Source: an uncultured virus (IMG/VR IMGVR_UViG_3300011906_000001) (Duplodnaviria > Heunggongvirae > Uroviricota > Caudoviricetes). From it: a stretch of 64,000 nucleotides of DNA. Positions 8,149 to 32,107 of the stretch are shown piece by piece (within the stretch, counting starts at the first letter, position 1; each line of letters begins with the position of its first letter). The stretch covers positions 62,001 to 126,000 of IMG/VR virus record IMGVR_UViG_3300011906_000001; one strand, 5' to 3'. A program made the position numbers and the translations under genes. Under the pieces are notes generated by a model. It ran no database searches, was not told the origin of the DNA, and worked only from the letters and a program-made list of their open reading frames with translations.

Positions 8149-8352
8149 TTAGATTGCAAGTTTGCTGGCAAGGCGAGCCGCTACAGCTTCTTGAAGTTCA
8201 GCGGGAGTGAGTTCAACCCCTTCAAGCTGACTTGACACCTCGTCACTGCCCAGGCAACGGAAGATGGCCTCGGCGGCCACCTCCACACTTGCAGTCAGCA
8301 CTTGAAGGTTATTACCATGGGCTACGTTGGGACTAACGCTTGGCGCGTTCAT
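8149..8352 (-). CDS. small hypothetical protein (MNAPSVSP...)
   Basis: GGAG RBS before the ATG at 8352; fills the gap between the RNAP 3' exon and the next gene. Confidence 0.6.
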   Translation of the reverse strand: MNAPSVSPNVAHGNNLQVLTASVEVAAEAIFRCLGSDEVSSQLEGVELTPAELQEAVAARLASKLAI

Positions 8353-9475
8353 TGGTGTCTCCTTTATAAACAGATGCCACATGCTTGGACAATACATCCA
8401 GCAGCATATTAGTGACCCCAATCAACGTTGGGGAATGAACAATCCGAGCCTCTACAGACAACCGGCCAAAGATGGCGTCAATATCGCGCTTGTCTTCGGT
8501 TTTGTTGTAGCCTGAATAGGTTCTTGAAAACACGGTTTTCAGCTGATTGGCAAACACGGCTTTATCCCCCACACCCGCCACCACATCGTGATCAATATAA
8601 ATCTTGATCGCGAAGGTATCAGGATCGAGGGCTTTGCCTCGAATGCGGAAACTGGTGTCCACTTGTCCTGTAAAGGCTTTGGTACCTAACGCGCGAGCGC
8701 GTTTCTTCCGTTCTTTATCCGATTCACTGGCCAACAGTTGAAGGTTTTCAGACAGGTCATCCATATCCCCGTGATAGAAGCATTCGATTTTCGAAACACG
8801 TCCTACCACTTTAGCGCGTGGGGTTGCATGTTGTAGGCGTTTTAGGGTATCTAAAGCGGCATCACCAAATAGCGTCTGGTCAGCCGTCTCAGGGTCTTCA
8901 ATCGTACATAGAATTGAATCGAGCTCAACATGGTCACCCACTTTAACCAGATCATGAACCGCTTGTTCAAAGCCGACTTGCACCACACGCACTTCGGTGG
9001 TTTGGGTGGTCAGCTTTTTAGCGGTCTCTTCACTGATCGCCGATCCATCTTCCAGCGTGTCGATATTATCGATCATCGCCACCGTACACATCACCCCCGC
9101 TTTCCACACCACTTGATTGGGAACCAAGCGATCGTAAGTAAAATACTTACTGTTATACGCCAGTGTATCCCCTCGTTTAAAGGTATCCCCTGCTTTGAAC
9201 TGAGTGGTGAGTGTATGGGGGAAAGTGACCCCTGTAGCGACCCCATGATTAAGGCCTAAGGGGAGTTTCTCTTCAGACCCGTCTTTATAGCGTACATGAA
9301 TCGCACGCCCTGTTACTGATACCACTTCACCGGCTTGATCGGCTGAGGTTGCAAACATCTTAGTAGTGCGTTGCGCCACCACTTGTTCATAACCTGTTCT
9401 AAGCGGAGTGGCCTCATAGCCGTCAGCGAACGTTCCCTGACTTTGCTGGACCGCGATAAAGTTGATGCGTTTTGG
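8333..9475 (-). CDS. rpoB: virion RNA polymerase beta subunit, exon 2 (phiKZ gp178-like)
   Basis: Starts CCA AAA CGC (PKRINF) immediately after the intron terminal G; contains EDG and GDK..NQLKT beta-subunit motifs. Confidence 0.85.
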   Translation of the reverse strand, partial: PKRINFIAVQQSQGTFADGYEATPLRTGYEQVVAQRTTKMFATSADQAGEVVSVTGRAIHVRYKDGSEEKLPLGLNHGVATGVTFPHTLTTQFKAGDTFKRGDTLAYNSKYFTYDRLVPNQVVWKAGVMCTVAMIDNIDTLEDGSAISEETAKKLTTQTTEVRVVQVGFEQAVHDLVKVGDHVELDSILCTIEDPETADQTLFGDAALDTLKRLQHATPRAKVVGRVSKIECFYHGDMDDLSENLQLLASESDKERKKRARALGTKAFTGQVDTSFRIRGKALDPDTFAIKIYIDHDVVAGVGDKAVFANQLKTVFSRTYSGYNKTEDKRDIDAIFGRLSVEARIVHSPTLIGVTNMLLDVLSKHVASVYKGDTNERAKR

Positions 9476-10588
9476 CGAGGTCTTCAAGTGAGTGCGTAGC
9501 TCACCCCGTGCACTTAAGCACTGCTCCAGGCTTTCCCTGGACGTCGAGACTATATCTTCTTCCTCGACATTTCGTCGATAGGAAGGTTCCCATTTCGGAT
9601 CACTTGATCCTACACTGTGATAAACAGTTAGTCGTTGAACGTTCTTCCTAGCTTGCTTCCCAGCAATCTTTAGAAGCTTCGCTGCTGATTACCCATTGTA
9701 CATCCTCACAGTTTTCAAACCATTGCCGTTTATGCTTTCGCATTCCGTTTTGGTTGTGAGGCTTTAGGATGTCCCAGCAATTAGAGAACATTCACTCGGT
9801 CATTACTGATCGAGCGGACCTGGCGAAACTTGTTAAATAGCCAATCTGTACATTTCCAGGATAAACTTTTTCCACAGGCTCTTTCAATCGATTGCTTAAA
9901 GTGGCGGGCGATACACCCAACATTGTGCTGGCTTCTATCTGTTTTCCGAAAACGAGGAATTTACTCTCGTCTCTAAAATAAACAGCTATTGCTTCATCCA
10001 GCTCTGGCCAATTACGGACATCCTTTCCGATGGCGTACTGATATCCACTTCTACACAGTCTAGTCTGACAGCGCCTGGCTCTCCAAGCGATGGCATCTTT
10101 TGACAAATTAAGGAACTTACCACATTCAAGAAAACTAGGGAACGATTTTACATTACCTTCGATATCCCTAATACTAACTGGAACACACTTAGTGGTTAAG
10201 TTAAATTCACCGGCGTGTTCCGAATTCTCTTTATATGTGACCCACTCAAAATTACTAAGGTGGTTGTTTTCCTTAATACCATCTTTGTGGTTAACGATAA
10301 GACTATCCAAATCACGATTTTGAGGATCGGGTAGGAATGCTAGCGCAATGGCTCTATGCAGACCCAGTCCTTGTCTTTTACCGTTATCCCGAATGAGCGT
10401 ATAGTTCAAATAACCCCTACCATTTTTAGAGGCTCTAAGAACGCGTTCTGTGGACTTACTAATAACTACTCCATCTATATTTACTAAATAGCTGGAGTAT
10501 CCTGGTATTGTAACAAACCCTATTAAATTTTCCACGCCAATATATCCTTGAGAGCTTCTCAATATAATAAGCGTGTAAGTTTCAATTG
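9476..10588 (-). mobile_element. group I self-splicing intron (IA-like) encoding an HNH endonuclease
   Basis: Minus-strand core elements AAUUGCUGGG (P, 9782-9773), AAUCAGCAG (Q, 9690-9682), GUUCAACGACUA (R, 9640-9629), AAGAUAUAGUC (S, 9558-9548); 5' exon ends in U, intron ends in G; splicing restores in-frame STDD|PKRINF. Confidence 0.9.
9792..10562 (-). CDS. intron-encoded HNH homing endonuclease (NUMOD4/HNH_3 type)
   Basis: IPGYSSYLVNIDG.V (NUMOD4-like); LHRAIALAF...VNHKDGIKENNHLSNFEWVTYKENSEHA (HNH); C-terminal HTH-like repeats. Confidence 0.9.
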   Translation of the reverse strand: MRSSQGYIGVENLIGFVTIPGYSSYLVNIDGVVISKSTERVLRASKNGRGYLNYTLIRDNGKRQGLGLHRAIALAFLPDPQNRDLDSLIVNHKDGIKENNHLSNFEWVTYKENSEHAGEFNLTTKCVPVSIRDIEGNVKSFPSFLECGKFLNLSKDAIAWRARRCQTRLCRSGYQYAIGKDVRNWPELDEAIAVYFRDESKFLVFGKQIEASTMLGVSPATLSNRLKEPVEKVYPGNVQIGYLTSFARSARSVMTE

Positions 10589-13500
10589 ATCATCAGTTGA
10601 AGAACAGGGTGCTAACAATGCACTTGATGAAAACAGCTTTGAGGGAGGATCGATCTTAGGGTCGAAGGGTCGTGTGTTCCCTCTTAAGTTAGTGAAGTTG
10701 GCATCAGGCGTCAGATACGCCACCACCCCCACATCCCCTGAGTCAACGGTTGACTCAGACACCGTTCCTTGATCGTTTTCATGGTAGATCCGAGTGCGTT
10801 CCACCATGGACTTACCTGAACGCCCCCCATCTCCCCGGTAGGTCATGGCTTCTTGTTCACGCAGGTTCGCAATGGGGTTAGCTTCTTCTACCAACGTGAC
10901 CGACGGATCTTGAACAATCCGCTGCCAGACTTCATGAGGCTTAAGCTCAACGGCTTGATCGCCTGAAGCCCCTCGGTTATTAAACGCTTTAACCGAACGC
11001 GTCAATTCACCGTAGACCACTCCAGCAAAGCGCTCGTAGCCTCTGTACCGCATAAAGGCTGGATCGACTTCACTTGGCGAATAGTCATCCATTAACAGCT
11101 CACAGGCTCTGACCACCAATGGACCAAAGGTGGTAGGCTCTCCCATCTCCTCCAGCATCCCAAGCGTAATGGGATCTACCCACGCTTGGAACAAGGTATC
11201 GATTTCCCTTAGGTACCTGACCCCCAATTCCGCCTCTTCCAAGATTCTGAAATAGACATCCTTCTTATCAAAATCCCACACCGAGAACCTTTTGAGTGTT
11301 CGGTGATACAGGTTCAAGCCTGACAGGATTAAGGTGGCCCTGTAATCCAACTTTGAAAAGACCCGAACCTCATCTTGGAAGACTAAGGTGTAATCATCAG
11401 GACCTACATTGAGTCGTTCGCCGCGTTGATGACGACTGACTTCAGCACCTAAGGATTCAATCAGTTTCGACAACCCAAACTGATAGGCGAGCACAAACCC
11501 CACCGGAAGGGTTTTATTTGAAACGCTCATGTAAGCAGCTTCAACAGGTGCTTTAGAGGTGTCGATATCAAGGATGTCGGTTAAGGTCCCTAACACCTCC
11601 ATCCCTTGTTCATCCCCTTGATCTTCCAAATAGAAGGTGTTGTTGTAATCAACCAACATCACTTTCCCATTGGCATGCAGTCCTACTGGAACAAAGCCTT
11701 CACTGAATGGGGATTCATCCACCACACGGTTATTGGCTTTAAGAAACTCAAAGCGATCCGGGTAGTTTAAGTAGAAGGTGATATCGCCTGCTTTGAACTG
11801 CTTAAACCGATTCGCCAGTAGGGTGTAGATTCTGGGGAGTTTAAACTCAGAACTTAACCCATTGGTGTAACGAAGGTCGGTGATCGACTGATCGTCTTTA
11901 TCCAGTCCCCTCGCTGTAATCAGTCGGATCAACCATTTGTCATAGTCGTTAATAACACGTTCTGAACGAACGACAAAGGTTTTGTTGTAGTAGCTGGTCA
12001 ACGCCACGCGGGATGGAGCCACTTTACGCAAGGGCACGTCTCCCCTTTGGAGCCGCATACGCTGCTTGGTGCCGTTACTGACAAACCGTCCATCACGATC
12101 CACCACAGGCAGCCTGAAACGAACCGTTGACTGGCGTCCTCTCAGTGGCCTGATGGTCACTGTGTGGATTTGGTAATGATTCATCTCATCTTCAACCGTT
12201 TCCACCTCATAGCCTGTGATTGACACCCCTTGTTGCTGAACAGCCATGACGGCATTTAGGATGTCTTTTTTCATCAAGACTTGCGTGTACTTTTGTTGCA
12301 TGGATTTAAGCTTGCTTTTAAGCATGCTCTTATCCACGATGGTGTCGGTATCAGGAAAGGCTTCTTCCTCTGGAAGTTCAAAATCCTCAGCGCTATAAGC
12401 CATCGCCTCAGCGATTGTTTTACCTGAACCAAACGGATCAGGAAGCTTTTGATACGTCTGGGAATCCTCGATGGCCCGTCGGTAGGAGGCTGGCGAGATA
12501 AGTCCCACCTCGCTCAGCTCCCAAGCCCGTTCCACAACCGCTTGCGTCAGACGGTTGGTTTGCGCTTTAACTGGCTCTTGAAGATAAGCGTCTTCTAACA
12601 CCTCTTCATCCACCAAAGCGACAGGTTCTGAATCTTCATCATCCAACTCAAGGGTGTTATCGACAGACGTAGGCACCATAGGGGCTTCAATGTCCATGGA
12701 TAAGTCAAGCTCAGGCAAGAGACTATCAGCATCTGGCTGATTGTCTTGAACCACCCCTTCCTCGTCAGCATCTGAGGTTGGATCGATCACGTCTGTTTCA
12801 GAATCAGATTGAACTGGAGCGGTCTGCTCAATCGCCTCCTCAGGATCATGGATATTGAGAACGGCTTCATTGTTCTCATCGGTCTCCAATGCAATGACAT
12901 TGGCATTGAAGTCGAGCAATCCTTGCATGAGGACCATGAACTTACGTTGCATGGCGCGGGGTGCAAGGCCTACATCTTTTTCAAGGGTGGGGTCTTTACG
13001 CCATTGGTTGAGTTTACCCAGATTAATCACGGCAAAATGAGTACGGGTTCTTAAGATGAAGTTGATCTTATCAAAGGCTTCAACCGGGATTGCACTCATC
13101 AAGCTGTTAGCGCGATCCTCACCCAACCAAGTGAATAGATCGAACAGGTTCAGCAAGCTTTGGGTGTGAAACTTCTTAAGGTTCTGTTGAGTGGGGCCAT
13201 TGGCCATTAAGTTAAAGTCACTGAACTTAGGCAGGGTTGCAGGCAACTCCAGTTCAATGAATTGATTCCACCCAAATCGCTCATGGATTGAACTGACCGA
13301 ATTCCAAAATGTTTGGGTGTTATTCTTCCACCTGAAAAACCCAGCTTTATAAGAGGCGATGTAACGATAAAGCGGATTAAGCAGGTTGTAGTTAACAATC
13401 AACACATTCAACGGATTGATGGTTAATGCCTTATCTTGACGCAGGGGTCTGAATTGACGGTTCTTGCGTCTGAATTCATTTTCCATGATCAAAGGATTTA

Positions 13501-13774
13501 AAGGCGTTCTCCGAGGAGGACCTTCTGAGCCAATCAGCTTAGTCACATGCTCAACAAAGAGCCTTGGACTTCCATCGTTCAAGATTGCCCGGATAACAGG
13601 ATCAGCAGGGGAAGGCCCTACTACAGCGCCTGAATCTTGAAAGAAATGATAGATCGATTCCCGAGGCAGGTTAAGCCTTAGGTTTGGAATCAGTCTTGGG
13701 CGTGTCAACTTATCAACGGTCATTAACCCGTTTTTAAGGTAATACTGTTTTTCTTTAAGGCGTGCCATTGCCAC
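10589..13774 (-). CDS. rpoB: virion RNA polymerase beta subunit, exon 1 (phiKZ gp178-like)
   Basis: About 1060 aa with RIYH..QGTVSESTVDSGDVG beta-like motif; ends ...STDD at the 5' splice site. Confidence 0.85.
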
Positions 13775-22263: not shown

Positions 22264-24255
22264 ATGAGGTTATACATGGCCGTTTCTGAGAAAAGTAAGA
22301 TTTGGCTAAAATACGCCTTTCTACTGCCCACCGATGAAAGCGCATTAAGTTACGGGTCTCAATCCAGAAGGCGCCATGCCACCAGTGCGGCCTTTAAATT
22401 CACTAACACCAGTTTAGGGGGCAATTACGCCATCAACAACCCCCCGCAGTTTACCAAATACTGCGACATCCGTCATCCAGGCCGGGGGCGGGATGAGGCG
22501 AATAAACACCAAGGGATGGGTCGGTATTATTCGGAAGCCATTGATGACCCCAAGCAGGTCATTCACATGAGCTTTGGCGTGCCTAAGTTTTCCTCCTGGA
22601 CCAGTTTTTTCACCAACTTCTACGATGTCAATGCAGCCATGCTGGCCAACAAAGGCACCGTAGGAGGGCTTTGGTATAACTTGGGTAATGCTGGGGGTTA
22701 TATTGTCTCCTTGCCTGCTCAACCCTTTATCATTGGCTTTACGGGGGTTAATCGGCTATTAAGCTTCTTAAGCAAATCCCAACCTTCGAAGTGGTATTAC
22801 TTTAAACCGACCATGCACAGTTATTGGTCAGCGGTCAATACCATTGCCAACGAGTTCGCGGTAAACTTAGGCATTGTTCCACGGGTCTTTGATCAATCGC
22901 AAGATGACCTTCAAGACCCTGGTATGAAGGTCACGGCTGAAGATCGCAAGCGCATGCATGAAATGTTCCCCGACCTGTTTCGCCCCGATGGGGGCATTGA
23001 TGTCATGGCCTTGGCCAACCGAACGCAACGGATGAGTGATGCTTCTCAAAAGGCCATGCGTAATCTCACGGCGCGGGCTAAAACGGTTAAGGAACTTAAT
23101 GCCACCATTAACCAATACACCCAAGAGAAGATTAAAGACCCTCAGCCTGATGCCGATGCCCGCAAATACTTCTTGGATTACATCAAGGTCGATAACGCCC
23201 AGGAAACCGAAACCTTAACAGGAGCAGATACCTTCAGCAGTTGGAGCGATTTAACTGGGGTATGGAACTTTGTCACGGCCAACCAGCATGATGGTAACCA
23301 GTTTGCGACTTTCCGAGTGGAACACACAGGGCCTTTGAGTGAAAGTTTCAGTAACTCAACGCGTCAGTCAGATATCGCCAGTCAGCTTAACTCCAAAATC
23401 AGCCAAGGTCGTAATGCCAGTTTTAACATGATGCAAGGCAGTATCACCGAAAGCATTGGGGCGGTGTTAAGTGGCCTTAGCAGCATGGCGGGTGGGGCCT
23501 TGGATTCGGTTAACCTAGGTGGCCTTCAAACCTTAACCGGATCGGCTTTCATTGACATCCCAGAACTCTGGGAAGGCTCCACTGCGCAAATGCCAACGGC
23601 GGATTACAAAATCAGTTTGCCATGTCCCTATGGCAATGTCATCAGTCGCTTTATCAACCTGTACATCCCCTTGGCCATGCTGTTACCAACGGTCCTACCC
23701 CTCTCAGCAGGACGGTCTGCGTACACCAGTCCGTTCCTCTGTCAGATCTACCACCAAGGGCGCGTGCAAAAGCAATTGGCACTGGTAGAAAGCATGTCCA
23801 TTACTCGGGGTACCGGTAACGTCGGTTGGAACGCCGAACATGACATGCTAGGCTGTGAAGTCACCTTAACGGTTAAAGACCTCTCCTCGATCATGCATGT
23901 GCCGATCAAGGCAGGCTTTGCCTCCAACAGCTGGGTGGGTACGGCTGCACGAGCAGGCTCTGCGTTAGTGGGGGAAGCCATCGGCGGGGATAAAGGCACA
24001 GCAGTTGCTCTGGCTGCAACTGATGGCGCAGTATGGGATGAACAAAGCCTGTTCTCTGATTACATGTCCGTCCTAACCTCTCTAAGCTTGGCGAATAACT
24101 ATTACATCGGCAAACGCATTAACTTGAACATGACAAGAACCCTTCAGGACTTTAAAACCTGGAGAAGCCCGTCTAACTTTATGAGTTGGGTCTTGGATGG
24201 GGAAGTGGCCCGTTTCCTCTCAGCCTTTACCCAAACCTCAGATCGCTTAGAATAA
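22264..24255 (+). CDS. virion/baseplate structural protein (phiKZ gp182-like)
   Basis: 663 aa; [19 protein letters not shown] and [12 protein letters not shown]; follows the gp181-like gene. Confidence 0.75.
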
Positions 24256-24311
24256 TAACGCACCTCACTTAACACGATTGTTTAATCTTTAAACATCAAT
24301 GGAGAATCAAC

Positions 24312-24560
24312 ATGAATCAATTTAAACGCCTGGTCAGAACGCTGTTAACGAGACTGATGCTCTATAGCCTACTGGGCAATCATAACAGGCCCTATCTCGA
24401 AGCCTTGGTTGAGAATGCAAAGCATGATAACCCAACCTTCTTTGCTCAGAAGGCTGAACTGTATCGGCATTTCAAATCCCAGCACGGCGATCATCTTAAT
24501 TATAACGAACTTAACTTGGCGGTTGAATTGGTTATTTCCCTGTCAGAAGAAACGGCTTAA
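24312..24560 (+). CDS. small hypothetical protein
   Basis: GGAG RBS; hairpin downstream. Confidence 0.65.
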   Translation: MNQFKRLVRTLLTRLMLYSLLGNHNRPYLEALVENAKHDNPTFFAQKAELYRHFKSQHGDHLNYNELNLAVELVISLSEETA

Positions 24561-25079
24561 TCTTAAGGCCCTTTTCCTATTATCAGGAGAAGGGCTTTAT
24601 GCCCTCTCCAATCTATCCTTTAAACCCCATTGTAAGCGTCTGTACGCTTTCCTATTAACCGTTTAGCGTCTAACCCATCCAACCCTACGGCTTATTAATC
24701 AATCGCTCTTAAATGAGCTTATATCTATTTTTAATTAATTTTAATAATTTGTTAAATAATGGCATAAGGGCCTTCCTCTAATGGGAAGGCCTAGTAGGGG
24801 GTTATATCCAATTTAAAGCTTCGCTTGGTTTATAAAGAAATAAGGATGATTAAAGCTTCAGGCTTTAATCCTAATAAAGCGTTTATTATATTTAAAGGCT
24901 ATGATGTCGGGCTTCGCCCTCCTTTTATTCAAGAAACCCCCCAAACCCCCCATGAGGTCCCCTTTTGAGGGATCAGGGATAGGCTAAACATCAGCCTAAG
25001 GTTTGGGGCTAAAGAACATAAATAATGCACTGTGAGTAAAGTTTATTTTAAAGAAGGTTAATTAAGCATTCCAATCACA

Positions 25080-25095
25080 TTGAAATCTATATCAC
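25080..25095 (+). promoter_or_regulatory. putative early promoter driving the tRNA
   Basis: TTGAAATCTATATCAC, 70 nt upstream of the tRNA. Confidence 0.6.
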
Positions 25096-25164
25096 CCCTA
25101 TGTAAAGTAATACCTCAGTAAGTATTACTATGTGAGAAGCTATCTCACAAACGGTAAAGAATCT

Positions 25165-25248
25165 GGGGGTTTGGTGGAATGGTAGACACAGCGGTTTTAA
25201 GCACCGCTGCTTAATAGCGTGAGAGTTCGAGTCTCTCAACCCCTACCA
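25165..25248 (+). tRNA. trnL: tRNA-Leu (anticodon UAA)
   Basis: Acceptor stem GGGGGTT/AACCCCT, D arm GTGGAATGGTAGACAC, anticodon arm GCGGT-TTTAAGC-ACCGC, long variable arm, T arm GAGAG-TTCGAGT-CTCTC, discriminator A and encoded CCA. Confidence 0.95.
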
Positions 25249-25383
25249 CATTTTCAATTCAGTTGTGTTCAATCTATTTAATAGGTCGAAACCGAAAGCC
25301 ATGACTGGATTGAGAACGCACACTCTTAATTTTATTAATTGTCCTGCACAGACATGATCGGAATGACGAGTGTGGTTAAAAAG

Positions 25384-25413
25384 CATAGTCCCTCCCTTCG
25401 GGGAGGGTTTATG
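25384..25413. terminator. terminator-like hairpin (CATA-CCCTCCC family)
   Basis: CCCTCCC-TTCG-GGGAGGG. Confidence 0.7.
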
Positions 25414-25460
25414 TCATCTATAAACTTAATTGAATCGCTAAGCAACCAAGAGAGCTAAGC

Positions 25461-25784
25461 ATGAAAGCCTACCCATTAACACAAGCTTCAACCGTTCAGT
25501 TCAGTTCCATTAAGCCTGAAAAGACTCAAGGGAGTTTAGGGCTAAGCCGTAAAAGCGATAAGGTTTATCATGAGGTGCTTTACTTCACGGTAGATGGGGA
25601 GTTCTTTGCCGATAAAGAATCGATCCTGTATCGGGACAAGATGACCTTTGAACGCGCTTTAAAGGAAGCGGTGATGCAGTATCACCATGATTCGGTTCAT
25701 GCAGGCAATGAGGTGTTGGTCAGGCGCATCAACTATGCCATGCGATATCGTAAAGTCATGGACAAGACCATGAGGAGGATTTAA
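25461..25784 (+). CDS. hypothetical protein
   Basis: 107-aa ORF abutting the next gene. Confidence 0.65.
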   Translation: MKAYPLTQASTVQFSSIKPEKTQGSLGLSRKSDKVYHEVLYFTVDGEFFADKESILYRDKMTFERALKEAVMQYHHDSVHAGNEVLVRRINYAMRYRKVMDKTMRRI

Positions 25785-25786
25785 CC

Positions 25787-26266
25787 ATGGCAGTTTATGA
25801 AATGCCTCATGGAACCTTTGTCACAGGTTTGGGGATCGTTGATGTTCCCAAATACATCAACTACAGGGCGAGCATTAATGCCTGGGTGATCAGTAAGACC
25901 CCAGAGATTCAGGTGGATCGTTACACCTTCAAAGACCGCGATTACATCAATACCGGCTATGCATTGAAAGCGGCTATTAATGAACTGTCTAAAACCCACA
26001 GGCTTCAACGTAAAAAGCGCAGCCTTAATAAGCATGAACGAAAGGATAAGATTATCCTGACAGGTTACCCTGGAATTATGCGCAGGATTCAGTACAAAAG
26101 AGGGCAATGGCAACACACGTTCAGTGTATACAACCCAGCAGATGAATGCATTGTGTATATCTACATCGGTACTCAAAATACCTATCAGAAACATTACTAC
26201 GAGGCCTTAGATAAAGCCAAAGCCATTCGCTTTGAAGCCGTTGAACGTTATTACCAAATGCCTTGA
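25787..26266 (+). CDS. hypothetical protein, possibly AP2-like DNA-binding
   Basis: GAGGA RBS; basic; TGYPGI...EALDKAKAIR resembles an AP2-like end. Confidence 0.55.
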   Translation: MAVYEMPHGTFVTGLGIVDVPKYINYRASINAWVISKTPEIQVDRYTFKDRDYINTGYALKAAINELSKTHRLQRKKRSLNKHERKDKIILTGYPGIMRRIQYKRGQWQHTFSVYNPADECIVYIYIGTQNTYQKHYYEALDKAKAIRFEAVERYYQMP

Positions 26267-26277
26267 TTGAAACGAAA

Positions 26278-26293
26278 CTAAGGCCTATATCAC
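26278..26293 (+). promoter_or_regulatory. putative early promoter
   Basis: CTAAGGCCTATATCAC, intergenic. Confidence 0.55.
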
Positions 26294-26374
26294 ACAAGGG
26301 CAAACACCGTAGAAGAATTACCACCCACTTCTATGCTTTAGCTAATCATTCAAACCCACGAAAGGATAACACCC

Positions 26375-26797
26375 ATGAGCAAGAACACCGAACTCAAAAG
26401 CCGCGTCTTTATCGAAAAGCACGGCCTGGATGAAAAAATTCAGATCAACGAGAAGGGTCTGTTCAACCTTCCAGATGACCTGCATGAAAGCATCGTATTG
26501 GCCGATGCGGGTGTCACCCTTGAGCAATTGAAAAAGGTTCAGAAAACCGAATCTGAATTACTGGCCGCCACCGCATTGCTTGCCGGCGAGAAAACTGCCG
26601 TGGCCTTCAAAGAAAACCCTGAACTGACCGAAACTGCGTTGAGCTATTCGATTGGCTCAACCCAAACCGCGTCGATTGTCTTTAGCCGTGATAACAAAGA
26701 TCACATGGTCGCAGCGGTTGAAACTAAAGTCAAGAGTGCTGAGTTCAAGCGTGTAGCCAGTCACCTCAATAGCCTGTTCGATGACATCAACAGCTAA
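26375..26797 (+). CDS. hypothetical protein (phiKZ-like)
   Basis: AAGGA RBS; has its own promoter and terminator. Confidence 0.75.
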   Translation: MSKNTELKSRVFIEKHGLDEKIQINEKGLFNLPDDLHESIVLADAGVTLEQLKKVQKTESELLAATALLAGEKTAVAFKENPELTETALSYSIGSTQTASIVFSRDNKDHMVAAVETKVKSAEFKRVASHLNSLFDDINS

Positions 26798-26808
26798 TGA
26801 GTACCATT

Positions 26809-26839
26809 ATAAAGGGATCTATAGATCCCTTTATTTTTT
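26809..26839 (+). terminator. rho-independent terminator (perfect 26-bp palindrome)
   Basis: ATAAAGGGATCTATAGATCCCTTTAT followed by TTTTT. Confidence 0.75.
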
Positions 26840-26862
26840 GATAAACCAAAAACCTGTTAGGA

Positions 26863-27852
26863 ATGAAACACATGAAAGGGTTGTTTGTTGTACTTGAGGG
26901 TATGGACTTCTCAGGCAAGACCACACAACGTGAACTTGTAGCCTCTCTTCTGGAAAGTCGCGGCTATGAAGTGGTTCAAACGCGTGAACCAGGTGGTACA
27001 CCCGCCGCTGAACAGATTCGCAGCGTCTTTCTAAACGGTGAGTTCACGCCAATGGGTGAGCTCATGCTGGTACAAGCAGCCCGTGCTGAACATGTACATA
27101 ATTTAATTATCCCAGCGCTTAAGCGCGGGGCGATTGTTCTATGTGATCGTTTCTTTCTATCGACCTATGCTTGGCAAGTTCATCCCTACGTGACTGAAGA
27201 CGATCAGCAGATTCTAGGCCTCTTTGGGGAATCGCTTAAATTCATCATCGATGGGATTGAAGAAACTGTTCAGATCTTTCTGGATGTCCCTAAAGCTGTT
27301 CGTGATGAACGTTATAAAGCTGAAGGCGCACGCAATCCGTTGGATGAACGCCCTGCTGAATTTATGGCTAAGGTTGAAGAAGCCTATGACATCATTAAGC
27401 GTTCAGATGACATTGTTTATGTGGATGCTAATCGTCCAATTGAAGAAGTCACCAGCCAGCTCATTGATATCATCGAACAAGCCCTGATTGAACAGGATGA
27501 ACTCAGTAAAGCATCTACTGAAACCACCCAATCCACTAAATCTGAAGAAGTTCAACTCGATCCACAACCTGTTCAACCCCTGCCTGAGTTGTTCGATTTC
27601 TTGAAAGCTTCTATCGACAAACATTTCTCAGACCTTGGCTTGTCGATGTTGCTATCCCCTGAGCTATTGGAAAAATGGAAAGTGGTGGCGCTTCAAAAGA
27701 GCACGCCGCTTAAGGCTGAGCTTGAAGAAAAGGGTCTTGAAGGTCGTGAGCTTTATGGACAACTCGACGGCGGCATGCGTTGGATTGCTCAGCTGGCGTA
27801 CAACCATGAAATGGCCAATCAGATGTTGAACCCTGTCAAAACTGAAGGTTAA
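26863..27852 (+). CDS. tmk: thymidylate kinase with C-terminal extension
   Basis: FVVLEGMDFSGKTT P-loop, TREPGGT, VLCDRF..STYA.Q. Confidence 0.92.
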   Translation: MKHMKGLFVVLEGMDFSGKTTQRELVASLLESRGYEVVQTREPGGTPAAEQIRSVFLNGEFTPMGELMLVQAARAEHVHNLIIPALKRGAIVLCDRFFLSTYAWQVHPYVTEDDQQILGLFGESLKFIIDGIEETVQIFLDVPKAVRDERYKAEGARNPLDERPAEFMAKVEEAYDIIKRSDDIVYVDANRPIEEVTSQLIDIIEQALIEQDELSKASTETTQSTKSEEVQLDPQPVQPLPELFDFLKASIDKHFSDLGLSMLLSPELLEKWKVVALQKSTPLKAELEEKGLEGRELYGQLDGGMRWIAQLAYNHEMANQMLNPVKTEG

Positions 27853-27863
27853 GGACCTTATTA

Positions 27864-28097
27864 ATGACTAAATCGACCTTGTCGTTGAAAAACCAAGACG
27901 CCGAAGCCACTCCCATGAATGAGGGGTTGGATAAGCTTATTGGGAAAACCTTCGAGAAAAGCCGCTTTGGTAATGTGGTGCGTGCCGAGTTGATCGAAGT
28001 CGGTCGTCGGGATGTACTGTTGAAAGAAAAGGATCGGGTTGATTCTTTTACCGTGTCGATTAAAGAACTGAAGAAGTTCTATAAACAGATCGACTAA
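27864..28097 (+). CDS. small hypothetical protein
   Basis: AAGGA RBS; hairpin downstream. Confidence 0.65.
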   Translation: MTKSTLSLKNQDAEATPMNEGLDKLIGKTFEKSRFGNVVRAELIEVGRRDVLLKEKDRVDSFTVSIKELKKFYKQID

Positions 28098-28100
28098 CCT

Positions 28101-28134
28101 CATAATCCCTCCCCAGTGCAGGGGAGGGATTATG
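28101..28134. terminator. terminator-like hairpin
   Basis: Perfect CATAATCCCTCCCC/GGGGAGGGATTATG stem. Confidence 0.75.
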
Positions 28135-28155
28135 CCCATTAGAGAGTTAAGGCTC

Positions 28156-28386
28156 ATGGTACGTCCTAATACTGGCAATACGCTTAAAATCGGATCATTA
28201 GTTGAATTAATTAACGAGACCAGTGGCTATACTGAAACGTATGTTGTTAAAAAGCCATTTAACTTCAACACCATGACTATTGATTTAGGGCTTAATAAGG
28301 CGTTTAGCAAATTGACTTACCTGGAACTGATGGGGGTATTTGATTATTTGATACGAAGAGACTACATCGCCCCTAAAGTTGATTGA
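28156..28386 (+). CDS. small hypothetical protein
   Basis: TAAGG RBS before the ATG at 28156. Confidence 0.55.
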   Translation: MVRPNTGNTLKIGSLVELINETSGYTETYVVKKPFNFNTMTIDLGLNKAFSKLTYLELMGVFDYLIRRDYIAPKVD

Positions 28387-28393
28387 AACACAA

Positions 28394-28409
28394 TTAAGAA
28401 CTATATCAC
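28394..28409 (+). promoter_or_regulatory. putative early promoter
   Basis: TTAAGAACTATATCAC, intergenic. Confidence 0.55.
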
Positions 28410-28440
28410 ACATGCGTGTGATCTGCGCAGACAGGTAATT

Positions 28441-28746
28441 ATGCCGATGATAGAAGTAGAATCCAGTTATCGTTTCCTCTATCTTCGCCGTGATGAAGAT
28501 GAACTTTATGTCGGGTATGACTACGATGGCATGAAGGCGCTGATCATTGAGAAAGGTGATGAATACTGTTACTTGATTGTTGATCTTAAAGGTGAGAAGC
28601 ACATGCTGCTCATCAGTCCTAAACTGGTTTCTTTGAAAAAGGATACAGACAAAAAGAAAATTGCGACCGATTTATATTTAGACTATTGTCAACAGCTGCG
28701 TAATGAGCGGGAAATACTCTGCTTATTTGAACAGGTCAACACTTAG
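28441..28746 (+). CDS. hypothetical protein
   Basis: AGGT RBS; 101 aa. Confidence 0.65.
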   Translation: MPMIEVESSYRFLYLRRDEDELYVGYDYDGMKALIIEKGDEYCYLIVDLKGEKHMLLISPKLVSLKKDTDKKKIATDLYLDYCQQLRNEREILCLFEQVNT

Positions 28747-28775
28747 TAACGATTAAGCTTTACCCTAAACCACTT

Positions 28776-29117
28776 ATGGAAACTGTTATGAAACTCATTT
28801 GCCGTATGATGTGCTATTTTCTTCTCGTCATGGGAACCACGCTGGCCACTGTTGCAGCAATGGCCGCCGAAGGACCCACCATGACTGATGTTCAAATCTT
28901 CATTGGGCCAGAGGAACTGTATTCAGAGTCTCAGGTCTGGAACGTCTGGTGTGATGACGCCTTACAATGCACCTTGGGAGGTGCTGCTGTTTCGGCCAAT
29001 GAACTCTTTCAGTTGATGCCTGTTGCGACATGGGGCTATTGCGCTGGGTTGTTTTGCTATGGGACTAAACAGCAAAGCGATATCTTAGGATTGAATCCTT
29101 TGTACTTCACGCCATAA
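28776..29117 (+). CDS. Cys-rich protein with signal peptide
   Basis: N-terminal hydrophobic stretch ending AAMA; four Cys in the mature part. Confidence 0.6.
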   Translation: METVMKLICRMMCYFLLVMGTTLATVAAMAAEGPTMTDVQIFIGPEELYSESQVWNVWCDDALQCTLGGAAVSANELFQLMPVATWGYCAGLFCYGTKQQSDILGLNPLYFTP

Positions 29118-29140
29118 AGAAATACCCACAATCCCTTATG

Positions 29141-29830
29141 TTATACACCCAGCCTATTACCCGTCCGTGTAGGCGTTGATTGATAGAGTCTAAGGTCAAC
29201 TAATTGGGTGGTCATCTAAGGAAGGTTCGTTGGGTTTCCTCATCCTTTGATTTGACTCACAGCCTGCACACTCGGCCCGTCCTTCCGAGGTATGTAGGTT
29301 AGTTGCGCATTTGGTCCGCTGCCTTGGTCGCCCGCCATCTTGCGTTTGATAAAGTGCGCAGCCGTCAGTTCATCTTCGGGTGAACTGGTGGATGTTCATT
29401 TAGAGTGTAGTAAGTACACGGCTACTTGGCCCTTTTAACTCACGGTGTAGAAAAGGGTTTCGTTAAACAAGTAGAGGAAGCTACTGTTCAGCCTGTCAAG
29501 CTGAGAACCGGATGGGATTCAATGGCTTTGTGACAAAAGCTCTTGGATTCAAGTCGTTATGAATATCCGTCTTTAGACAACTCTGACCACCCCCGCCGGG
29601 GTTCCCACTCGATGCGTTTGAAGGCCTTATTCATCGCGGCCGTTTGTGTGTATTGAACTGTTAGGGGTTCCTGATGGTTAAGCAGGCCAGCCTTTACACA
29701 CAAGCGTTTATAATTTCTGAATGGGCATTTGTTCATTCAACTGTTTGGGTTCCTTCTTATTGTCTGGTAAGAGGCTTCCTTTATGGAAGGCGGTGACGAA
29801 GGTGTCAGGCAGGAAGCCTTAGATCCCCAT
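29141..29830 (+). ncRNA. putative large structured non-coding RNA (about 690 nt)
   Basis: No ORF of 60 aa or more; over 12 helices, many with G.U pairs on the + strand; a UUCG hairpin; long-range ATCTAAGG/CCTTAGAT closing helix; terminator-like hairpin downstream. Confidence 0.7.
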
Positions 29831-29865
29831 CAACACCTAAGATATCCGTGTAACCCACCCAACGT

Positions 29866-29896
29866 AGTCCCTTCCCTTAATTGGGAAGGGGTTATG
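29866..29896. terminator. terminator-like hairpin downstream of the putative ncRNA
   Basis: CCCTTCCC-TTAATT-GGGAAGGG..TTATG. Confidence 0.65.
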
Positions 29897-29929
29897 TCCA
29901 TTATAAACCTTCAATGGAACTGATTTACA

Positions 29930-30271
29930 ATGTATAGAAAACGTTTTGATAGCCGCACCGCTGATAAATTTGTCATCAGAATGCCTGATGGCATGCGCGG
30001 GCGAGTGATGGAAATCGCCCGCGCACAGCGCCGTTCCATGAACAATGTCCTGTTGCAATTCCTTGAGAAGGAATTGCTTGCTGCTGAACAGCACACCAAT
30101 ACCTGGATTCCATCTATCGGTCAAGCGGTTATGCATTCGGATGGAATTCTCTGGGTGATAAAAGGATTCGATTTAGAAGGAAACGAAGTACGGCTTCAGC
30201 TGTATAACGATCGTTATGGGTCTATTAAGGTAGACCCTAAAGACTGTAAACCGTATTGCGTTAACCTATAA
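29930..30271 (+). CDS. Arc/ribbon-helix-helix DNA-binding protein, AmrZ(AlgZ)-like
   Basis: SRTADKFVIRMPDGMR..V..IAR...RSMN closely matches the N-terminal RHH domain of Pseudomonas AmrZ. Confidence 0.85.
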   Translation: MYRKRFDSRTADKFVIRMPDGMRGRVMEIARAQRRSMNNVLLQFLEKELLAAEQHTNTWIPSIGQAVMHSDGILWVIKGFDLEGNEVRLQLYNDRYGSIKVDPKDCKPYCVNL

Positions 30272-30342
30272 CCAAAAAACAACCGAAAAGAGAGATGATC
30301 AAGTGTCTCTCTTTTCAACTGAGTAATAGAGGTTCATAAACC

Positions 30343-30834
30343 ATGGGACTGTATTTTAAGACGCAAGAGGATCTGGATCAAGCCATCGGTAACGGAGGGG
30401 TCATTGGTATGTTAGACACCCTTGAAGCTGACGGTGATATTCCTCGGGCAATTGGCGATTGGAGTATTCGACTGGCACCATCTGATCAACGCAATAAAAC
30501 CGTTATTGTAGCGGTTCCCACAAACAGCCGCACGCGTGAGATTTATCATCAAGGCCGTCATAAATGGCTGTTGTCCTTAGGGTACAATGATCAATTGGCG
30601 GGTCAATACATCAAAGCCAGCGCTGGCGTGATGTACCGGTGGGAAGAGGTGGTCGCCCGCTTTGTATTGGCCAACATCAAGATGGATACCGAAACCTGGT
30701 ACGATATCAAAGAGGCGGATAATCCACTGGAGAAAGCGCAATCGTTTAATATTGAAGTTGCTATTGCCCGAAGCCGTCTCCAAGCGGCGATGGGGATTTT
30801 GATGAACATCTGGGAATTACCTCCCAAAGCCTAA
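30343..30834 (+). CDS. hypothetical protein
   Basis: GAGGT RBS; terminator at 30835-30880. Confidence 0.7.
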   Translation: MGLYFKTQEDLDQAIGNGGVIGMLDTLEADGDIPRAIGDWSIRLAPSDQRNKTVIVAVPTNSRTREIYHQGRHKWLLSLGYNDQLAGQYIKASAGVMYRWEEVVARFVLANIKMDTETWYDIKEADNPLEKAQSFNIEVAIARSRLQAAMGILMNIWELPPKA

Positions 30835-30925
30835 CATAAAGCCCTCCCATAACGGGAGGGCTTATGGTTTATTTTTTTGTTTTATCAACGATGTTATGTA
30901 TCTTGTTTGAGGAATAGGCGTTTAT

Positions 30926-31357
30926 ATGAACCTTTTTTGCGATTGTGAGTTTAACTCCAATAATGGTGGACTGATTTCACTTGCACTCGTTAGCGAAGAT
31001 GGCACGCGTGAGTTCTATGAGGTGGTTGAATGCAATGAGCCTCTTGATCCATGGGTGGCTGAGAACGTGATTCCGAAGCTTCATAAAGACCCAGTTCCTT
31101 ATTCGGTATTTCAAGCCTTGCTCAAACGCTTCCTAGGACAATTTGCAGGGGTTCATGTTATTGTTAACCATCCCAATGATGTTGTCTATTTTAGCAAAGC
31201 GCTGCTTAAGACAGCGGGCGAATGGATAATGGTGCAGCCACTGACGTTTGAGATTGACGATGAGTTGTCTTCTAAGCAATCGACCATTCTTCATAACGCT
31301 TTAGCCGATGCCGTGGCCACTCGGGATAGCTGGTTTAAGAAACATGGATTTATTTAA
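30926..31357 (+). CDS. DEDD-family 3'-5' exonuclease-like protein (Rv2179c/DUF5051-like)
   Basis: FCDCEF...LISLALV...EFY, WVAENVIP, HNALADA. Confidence 0.75.
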   Translation: MNLFCDCEFNSNNGGLISLALVSEDGTREFYEVVECNEPLDPWVAENVIPKLHKDPVPYSVFQALLKRFLGQFAGVHVIVNHPNDVVYFSKALLKTAGEWIMVQPLTFEIDDELSSKQSTILHNALADAVATRDSWFKKHGFI

Positions 31358-32073: not shown

Positions 32074-32107
32074 CATAAAGCCCTCCCCATTTCGGGGAGG
32101 GCTTATG
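32074..32107. terminator. bidirectional terminator hairpin
   Basis: CATAAAGCCCTCCCC/GGGGAGGGCTTATG between convergent genes. Confidence 0.75.

Follow-up and report, generated by a model that had tools for sequence, protein, structure and literature searches.

A candidate strand-specific hairpin-chain RNA in the largest ORF-free gap of a phiKZ-like jumbo phage genome

What does a densely coding jumbo phage genome hold in a gap of 812 bp that contains no gene? The question is raised by a 64,000-nucleotide stretch of DNA from an uncultured virus (hereafter the window), which corresponds to bases 62001–126000 of the 233,433-bp IMG/VR virus record IMGVR_UViG_3300011906_000001 (completeness estimate 78 %). 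Here the stop of one open reading frame (ORF; 28776–29117) and the start of the next (29930–30271) are separated by the gap 29118–29929, and a sequence-only reading of the DNA had proposed that positions 29141–29830 specify a large, highly structured non-coding RNA. We have examined this proposal computationally. The gap has an exceptional density of long helices on one strand, and on balance we lean towards the view, based on modelled folds, that it encodes a + strand non-coding RNA of about 0.7–0.76 kb, composed of about a dozen long regular stem-loops arranged in a chain.

Coding potential and folding of the gap

The gap is the largest of 17 gaps of at least 300 nt in the entire record, according to a crude ORF map in which called ORFs cover about 90 % of the genome. 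The expectation of some 800 bp devoid of any ORF of 60 aa or more proved correct, the longest ORFs within the gap being one of 59 aa on the - strand (29557–29736) and one of 46 aa on the + strand (29783–29923). The latter has a Shine-Dalgarno-like AAGAGG 9 nt upstream and runs through a terminator hairpin (see below); we judge that it is probably no gene. Stop codons number between 12 and 21 in every one of the six frames, with all three kinds represented, which rules out recoding of stop codons. When six-frame translations with X in place of stops were compared with protein families, the best PHROG match had an E value of 0.15 and the sole Pfam row scored 15.9 bits against a cut-off of 33.9; no protein relic was detected in this way, and a pseudogene was rejected because the translations match no protein family. 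The gap is non-coding. It also interrupts no gene, as had been claimed: both flanking ORFs are complete, since the PHROG match of the upstream ORF reaches the end of the profile and the Arc domain of the downstream protein begins at residue 8.

The unit folded was the 690 nt from 29141 to 29830, and the controls were same-size windows of the same genome and dinucleotide shuffles. The minimum free energy (MFE) of the + strand was -245.4 kcal/mol, compared with -214.0 ± 8.7 for 100 dinucleotide shuffles (z -3.59), none of which folded as low, in line with what the proposal of a structured RNA had anticipated; the - strand gave a z of -1.17 against 100 shuffles. In a smaller series of 20 shuffles the values were -4.87 (+ strand) and -1.75 (- strand), with four coding controls at -0.5 to -2.6. 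The fold of the + strand contains 13 uninterrupted helices of at least 8 bp, eight of which are of at least 9 bp, totalling 122 bp. The corresponding means were 4.25, 2.32 and 38.9 bp in 184 genome control windows (maxima 9, 7 and 86) and 4.69, 2.63 and 42.8 bp in 150 dinucleotide shuffles (maxima 10, 7 and 92); none of the 184 windows matched the candidate and none of the 150 shuffles matched its helix counts. In the fold of the - strand there is no helix of 8 bp or more.

The pairs themselves point the same way. Of the 233 pairs in the fold, 39 are G.U, and A.C is not among the three single (1 × 1) mismatches, which bears out the earlier argument that the mismatches favour a + strand RNA over DNA palindromes. 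G.U pairs without A.C mismatches argue against symmetric decay of DNA palindromes and, taken with a helix excess that is confined to the + strand, for selection on a + strand RNA. By contrast, another large gap of the same genome (810 nt, genome positions 170798–171607) folds alike on both strands, with z values of -10.4 and -12.0, as DNA palindromes do. The difference between MFE and centroid energy of the candidate was 7.4 kcal, where the control median was 34.2 and only one of 62 controls had a smaller value. We conclude that the region carries a genuine structure signal, one that belongs to its + strand as an RNA, and that the helix density is strand-specific and exceptional.

Architecture and transcription of the predicted RNA

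Pair probabilities were computed in three folding contexts, beginning with exactly 29141–29830 and extending with flanks up to the widest. Seven local hairpins of the + strand are robust in all three, six with probabilities of at least 0.85 and one with 0.61–0.88. From 5′ to 3′ these are a hairpin at 29261–29300 formed by AGCCUGCA and UGUAGGUU, with an inner CUCGG/CCGAG helix (0.89–0.95); a hairpin at 29302–29362 with an 11-bp base, GUUGCGCAUUU/AAGUGCGCAGC (0.61–0.88); a 12-bp hairpin with a cUUCGg tetraloop at 29363–29390 (0.85–0.96), which is terminator-like by scan (29362–29391); the hairpin GCCCUUUU/AAAAGGGU at 29429–29458 (0.95 in all contexts); the hairpin GGAUUCAA-GGCUUU/AAAGCU-UUGGAUUC at 29515–29550 (0.94–0.97); a hairpin at 29641–29706 with a 12-bp base, CGUUUGUGUGUA/UACACACAAGCG, and a 10-bp arm (0.97–0.99); and the 9-bp hairpin UGAAUGGGC/GUUCAUUCA at 29718–29739 (0.96–0.98). 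Three further + strand elements vary with context. The 5′ three-way domain at 29146–29210, in which CACCCA/UGGGUG closes around two hairpins, has a probability of 0.92 in two contexts and of 0.001 in the widest; the 10-bp core of a long irregular hairpin at 29553–29640 (5 + 7 + 10 bp and a tip) has 0.99, 0.99 and 0.38; and the outer helix of the long 3′ hairpin at 29741–29812 (8 + 5 + 9 + 5 bp) has 0.59, falling to 0.03 with flanks. Seven of the eight local helices listed in the sequence-only reading are present in the MFE fold where it had placed them, whereas CGGATG/TATCCG and the outer pairing CTACTTG/CAAGTAG are complementary but are not used by the fold.

Some short sequences recur along the chain. 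CCCGUCC occupies two hairpin loops, one in the 5′ three-way domain and the second in the hairpin at 29261–29300, and as read from the sequence could pair with GGAUGGG at 29510. A 17-nt motif is present on the + strand in two copies 83 nt apart, TGAACTGTTAGGGGTTC at 29654–29670 and TCAACTGTTTGGGTTCC at 29737–29753, and these two are the only matches without mismatch to the degenerate motif genome-wide. GGGTTCC is found three times within 155 nt of the candidate, compared with 10 occurrences on the + strand of the whole genome. Overall, the modelled candidate looks like a chain of long regular stem-loops, unlike a compact ribozyme; its long-helix density (17.7 bp per 100 nt) is six times that of the group I intron in the same window (2.9 bp per 100 nt).

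Transcription of such an RNA might begin in either of two ways. TTATG at 29136–29140 on the + strand resembles the phiKZ late promoter, TATG, in which the G is +1 and which, in the accessible part of the original report, is described as necessary but not sufficient (PMC4666361). A start of this type would put the 5′ end at G29140, with the first helix beginning 6 nt further on. TTATG occurs 566 times genome-wide, and most of its 175 intergenic occurrences lie beside terminator hairpins or coincide with start codons. The other way in would be read-through from an early-promoter-like site, TTGATTGAAA..CTATATCA (28376–28408, + strand), ahead of the pair of small ORFs on the 5′ side of the gap. 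Since the terminator scan called no terminator-like site between the ORF stop and the first helix (29118–29140), transcription from about 28401 could cross both ORFs and read into the gap. The TTGATTGAAA-N-CTATATCA motif is recurrent in intergenic DNA, being found at 25087, 26285 and 28401 and at no fewer than eight other sites of the genome, at 35–90 nt from the ORFs that follow and about 80 nt ahead of a tRNA-Leu gene, and it is probably an early promoter of the phage.

The transcript would end at the + strand-specific hairpin 29862–29897, a terminator of the CCCTCCC..GGGAGGG-TTATG family. Its stem has 15 pairs on the + strand and, as three of these are G.U, the hairpin is weaker on the - strand; it is 97 % identical over 32 nt to a copy at genome position 214120 and 81–90 % identical to five further copies. 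Both of the signals that had been noticed at the outset, the TATG at 29137 and a terminator-like hairpin near 29866, are thus present. The TTATGTC tail of the hairpin may in turn serve the next gene. Intergenic regions throughout the genome are dominated by hairpins of this CATAA-CCCTCCC..GGGAGGG-TTATG type. Dozens have the form CATAA-(A/G)CCCTCCC-loop-GGGAGGG(C/T)-TTATG(C/T)C, for example at 25390–25407, 30839–30863 and 32078–32104 as well as at 29862–29897; many are symmetric and so would be bidirectional terminators, and the coincidence of the TTATG tail with the phiKZ late-promoter TATG suggests combined terminator-promoter modules. That the candidate is transcribed, where it starts and ends, that it is a single molecule and that it has any function are points that we infer.

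Relatives, known RNA classes and rival explanations

Relatives of the candidate were sought in several ways. Blastn in distant mode found no similar DNA in 50,697 phage records, and nhmmer and blastn against the PhiPA3, KTN4 and L010 loci gave nothing below E 0.05. There is no second copy in the phage's own genome, where the terminator hairpin alone recurs, and a paralogue among the other large gaps of that genome was considered and dropped. A DNA search of four whole related genomes (Noxifer, PhiPA3, KTN4 and G001) had a best E value of 0.587. In a search of five genomes (G002–G006) a 25-nt match (E 0.0011) was judged to be due to chance, as it covers an ORF 3′ end and a short spacer and lacks a hairpin partner. 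Across 80 chimallivirus loci centred on the homologue of gp182 there was no match with nhmmer (E ≤ 1) or blastn (E ≤ 0.1), and two single-sequence covariance models (116 and 89 positions) had no match at E ≤ 1 in 85 related loci (1.77 Mb); an 18.3-bit covariance-model match in G002–G006 was rejected because it lies inside a 569-aa ORF. Exact-pattern scans of viral contigs (three patterns) and of genome contigs returned no match, and a single exact-pattern match in a metagenome contig shares 21 nt only and was attributed to chance. Searching for related loci with the gp198-like protein and with thymidylate kinase produced no relative, and with the helicase one locus at 40 % identity. Gaps in relatives that looked promising on the crude ORF map were discarded: those in L047 and L032 hold real ORFs, and that in L033, next to a tRNA, amounts to about 400 nt in which no ORF reaches 60 aa.

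Comparison with known RNA classes began from Rfam 15. At gathering thresholds the scan of the whole 64-kb window returned only Intron_gpI (9524–9836) and tRNA, and a permissive scan of 28900–30100 (E ≤ 10) returned one noise row (SCARNA18, 14.3 bits, E 7.7), so that none of the classes raised beforehand (ROOL, GOLLD, OLE, RNase P, tmRNA and introns) accounts for the candidate at E ≤ 10; neither ARAGORN nor Rfam found a tRNA or tmRNA in 29118–29929. The candidate had been said to lack the elements of a group I intron, and no Rfam intron model matches it at E ≤ 10, while the same library detects the true intron of the window (9524–9836, - strand) at 63.2 bits. That intron splits a gene and is accompanied by an HNH ORF, whereas the candidate matches nothing and splits no gene.

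The candidate is like GOLLD and ROOL, as described in the available part of a recent report, in being of 0.6–0.8 kb, ORF-free, phage-carried and rich in helices (10.1101/2024.12.08.627333). It differs from them in having no covariance-model match at E ≤ 10 and no relatives, and in being built as a series of long regular hairpins and not as a robust multi-domain fold. ROOL and GOLLD often adjoin tRNA genes in phages or prophages, whereas the candidate is not beside a tRNA, tRNA-Leu lying about 4 kb upstream. The chaining of many hairpins in one transcript that is predicted here recalls CsrB and RsmZ. An Rsm/Csr sponge was rejected: GGA occurs eight times against 10.2 expected, mostly in stems (two or three are unpaired), and there is no shared loop motif. 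In phiKZ and 201phi2-1, the accessible part of one study describes non-coding RNAs (ncRNAs) of under 250 nt that are intergenic or located in 5′ untranslated regions (UTRs), often being derived from the latter, and a conserved small RNA that lies upstream of the gp182 homologue (PMC11512511); the phage ncRNAs described in those parts of three reports that were available are all below 250 nt (PMC11512511, PMC10914365, PMC13282480). The candidate, as predicted, would share with the small RNAs of phiKZ and 201phi2-1 an ncRNA character, an intergenic position and a phiKZ-like host. It differs in its size of about 700 nt and in lying downstream of the gp182 homologue (ORF 22264–24255), at a distance of about 5 kb. 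A limited literature search, which did not extend to supplementary tables, found no description of a large ncRNA in phiKZ-like phages.

To judge from these sequence searches the candidate is an orphan, with no homolog among phage records, nine related jumbo genomes, 85 loci and a few exact-word scans, in collections that may lack the records nearest to that of the window, and in phiKZ (KTN4), PhiPA3, Noxifer and Phabio the syntenic interval is occupied by ordinary small genes or tRNAs. Both facts weigh against a functional RNA at this site, as do a number of properties of the fold. Long-range pairings had been proposed that would join distant parts of the RNA, namely ATCTAAGG/CCTTAGAT (29214–29221/29817–29824, + strand), which would enclose most of it, and a competing helix, GGGTGGTCA/TGACCACCC (29206–29214/29584–92). 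These are indeed exact complements, but by our own arithmetic about 3.6 perfect 8-mer and 0.9 perfect 9-mer pairings of such a kind are expected in 690 nt, so that the long-range pairs alone are not beyond chance. Moreover, the enclosing helix is not robust: its mean pair probability is 0.66 in exactly 29141–29830 and at most 0.02 with flanks, and that of the competing helix starts at 0.007 and reaches 0.62 in the widest context. Because the long-range helices disappear once flanks are added, the single global fold of ROOL/GOLLD type that had been envisaged is not supported. The thresholds of 8 and 9 bp for helix length were set after the fold had been seen; both agree. The control median of ensemble diversity was 154.5; the candidate, at 122.6, was lower, but several controls were lower still. 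Three of 13 independent control windows of high G+U content had z values of -3.6 or below (-5.37, -5.04 and -3.76), and one of these three comes from within a gene, in the sense direction. When MFE was regressed on GC and G+U content in 186 control windows, the candidate fell only 6.4 kcal below prediction, at rank 52 of 186. Local 200-nt windows gave z values of +0.29 to -2.73, like those of neighbouring genes (10 shuffles only), and DNA energy parameters applied to the + strand also gave a z of -3.54. Finally, a true intron scores low on the long-helix measure, which therefore marks an unusual architecture and not RNA function as such.

Given that only the local hairpins are robust and that the enclosing helices are lost with flanks, the gap might instead contain several separate RNA elements. 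The early two-gene operon would then have a structured 3′ untranslated tail, the Arc-like gene would have a leader, and there would be at least one small RNA that stops at an internal hairpin, such as the cUUCGg hairpin at 29363–29390. The terminator-like score of hairpin 29362–29391 and the absence of any terminator-like call in 29118–29140 would suit such a division, as would the size of the known phiKZ and 201phi2-1 ncRNAs, which in the part of the study available are under 250 nt and often come from 5′ UTRs (PMC11512511). However, the internal hairpins are without the CCCTCCC..GGGAGGG-TTATG signature of the phage's usual terminators, no promoter-like motif of the CTATATCA kind lies inside the gap, and twelve consecutive long hairpins would be many for untranslated regions; we regard separate elements as unlikely, though as an explanation to be taken seriously and one of the two main rivals. 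The other, conceivable but in our estimation distinctly improbable, is that the gap is a functionless spacer, a remnant of gene loss or of old palindromes whose structure is a by-product of G+U-rich composition and of strand-biased C-to-T mutation. The region is carried by no relative found, the different genes of the syntenic interval in relatives imply local turnover, the MFE is mostly predicted by GC and G+U content, and T exceeds A throughout (AT skew -0.12 to -0.26), all of which a spacer would accommodate. Yet shuffles keep composition and none of the 150 match the helix counts; the 184 windows taken from the genome, among them the most G+U-rich of those sampled, do not match them either. 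A bias able to leave 39 G.U and no A.C would have to be extreme, no protein relic is detectable, and a genome with about 90 % ORF coverage would rarely retain 0.8 kb of junk.

An element acting in cis at the level of DNA, either an origin of replication whose primer transcript is structured or an operator or centromere-like site for the Arc-like protein, would fit the Arc-like DNA-binding gene directly downstream, the RNase H-like gene located 1 kb downstream, the two 17-nt direct repeats with the three copies of GGGTTCC, and the z value obtained with DNA parameters. Strand-asymmetric pairing is, however, unexpected for duplex DNA sites; the two good repeat copies do not form a regular iteron array, a terminator stands between them and the Arc gene, and the AT-rich gap with symmetric palindromes at genome positions 170798–171607 is a far better origin-like candidate. 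We consider this explanation very unlikely. Least credible, and close to refuted, is that the gap holds a self-splicing intron in decay or the RNA left by a mobile element after loss of its protein gene. The size of the candidate fits an ORF-less group II intron, and a real group I intron with an HNH ORF in the same window implies that such elements move in this genome. Against this, no Rfam intron model matches at E ≤ 10 where the true intron is readily found, both flanking ORFs are complete, and there are no copies elsewhere in the genome. Rfam models of group II introns cover domain V, and there were no group II intron rows for the candidate at E ≤ 10; compared by eye with the consensus, hairpin 29363–29390 lacks the domain V bulge and AGC pairing.

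The hairpin-chain RNA is the reading that we prefer. Such an RNA would act through its structure, and our guess would be that during infection it binds proteins as a stable scaffold or decoy, with host RNases or RNA-sensing defences as possible targets; a role as scaffold, cage, decoy or ribozyme, as put forward in the sequence-only reading, is purely inferred. We suggest, as a possibility held only tentatively, that it could be the first example seen of a novel class, large hairpin-chain RNAs made by phiKZ-kind giant phages that use their own polymerases: one stable transcript, about 0.75 kb long, with a dozen long G.U-rich stem-loops that would act together as a decoy or shield against host RNases or against RNA-sensing or RNA-targeting immunity, or as a scaffold for phage proteins. 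If the hairpin-chain reading is true, a structured RNA of 0.7 kb would add a novel component to the RNA biology of phages with their own polymerases. Model phiKZ-like phages export their transcripts from a protein-walled nucleus. GOLLD and ROOL have reportedly only lately been shown to form striking assemblies, and an unrelated large phage RNA with a hairpin-chain build would widen that field. The value of the candidate is limited for now by the phage coming from a metagenome only, without close relatives in the data reached.

Genomic setting and other elements

The host of the candidate had been taken to be a phiKZ-like jumbo phage, and gene content, gene order and protein matches agree in placing the record among phiKZ/Noxifer-like jumbo phages. 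The order comprises split RNA polymerase beta genes, a 2247-aa tail-fibre-like protein, the gp182 homologue, thymidylate kinase (gp188), homologues of gp198, gp199 and gp200, and the gp203 helicase. The nearest named phages are Pseudomonas phages: the gp182 homologue is 62.8 % identical to that of Noxifer, and the gp198 homologue is 36–40 % identical to those of PhiPA3-like and phiKZ-like phages. The gp198-like protein has two relatives only (45 % and 43 %) among 5.8 billion protein clusters, which suggests a lineage that is almost alone in public data.

Both genes that flank the gap are on the + strand, the same strand as the candidate. The upstream small ORF (28776–29117, 113 aa) has a weak match to the C-terminus of PHROG 14004, and the downstream gene (29930–30271, 113 aa) encodes an Arc-like ribbon-helix-helix DNA-binding protein (Pfam Arc, E 4e-12; PHROG 38161). 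The only tRNA gene that ARAGORN detected in 24000–31000 is the tRNA-Leu with anticodon TAA at 25165–25248, about 3.9 kb upstream of the candidate. It sits in an ORF-free gap of 794 nt (24667–25460), which folds with a z of about -5 on both strands.

The group I intron (9524–9836, - strand) with its HNH endonuclease ORF (9792–10562) splits an RNA polymerase beta gene that extends over 8333–13774, PHROG 3148 positions 2–1051 being encoded by ORF 10559–13774 and positions 1049–1423 by ORF 8333–9487. An intron endonuclease has reportedly been found in PhiPA3, to which the present intron may be likened. It also resembles the virion RNA polymerase (vRNAP) intron that the accessible part of one study reports for 201phi2-1 (PMC11512511).

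Two other ORF-free gaps of the genome deserve mention. One, of 624 nt (genome 138476–139099), has no Rfam match and folds symmetrically, with z values of -7.5 and -6.3. The other is the AT-rich gap of 810 nt at genome positions 170798–171607 (L011:299–1108), which has no Rfam match either; its perfect palindromes and repeated words like TACAATAATA and GGGGGTTTGAGCCAAT make it a candidate replication origin or other DNA-level element.

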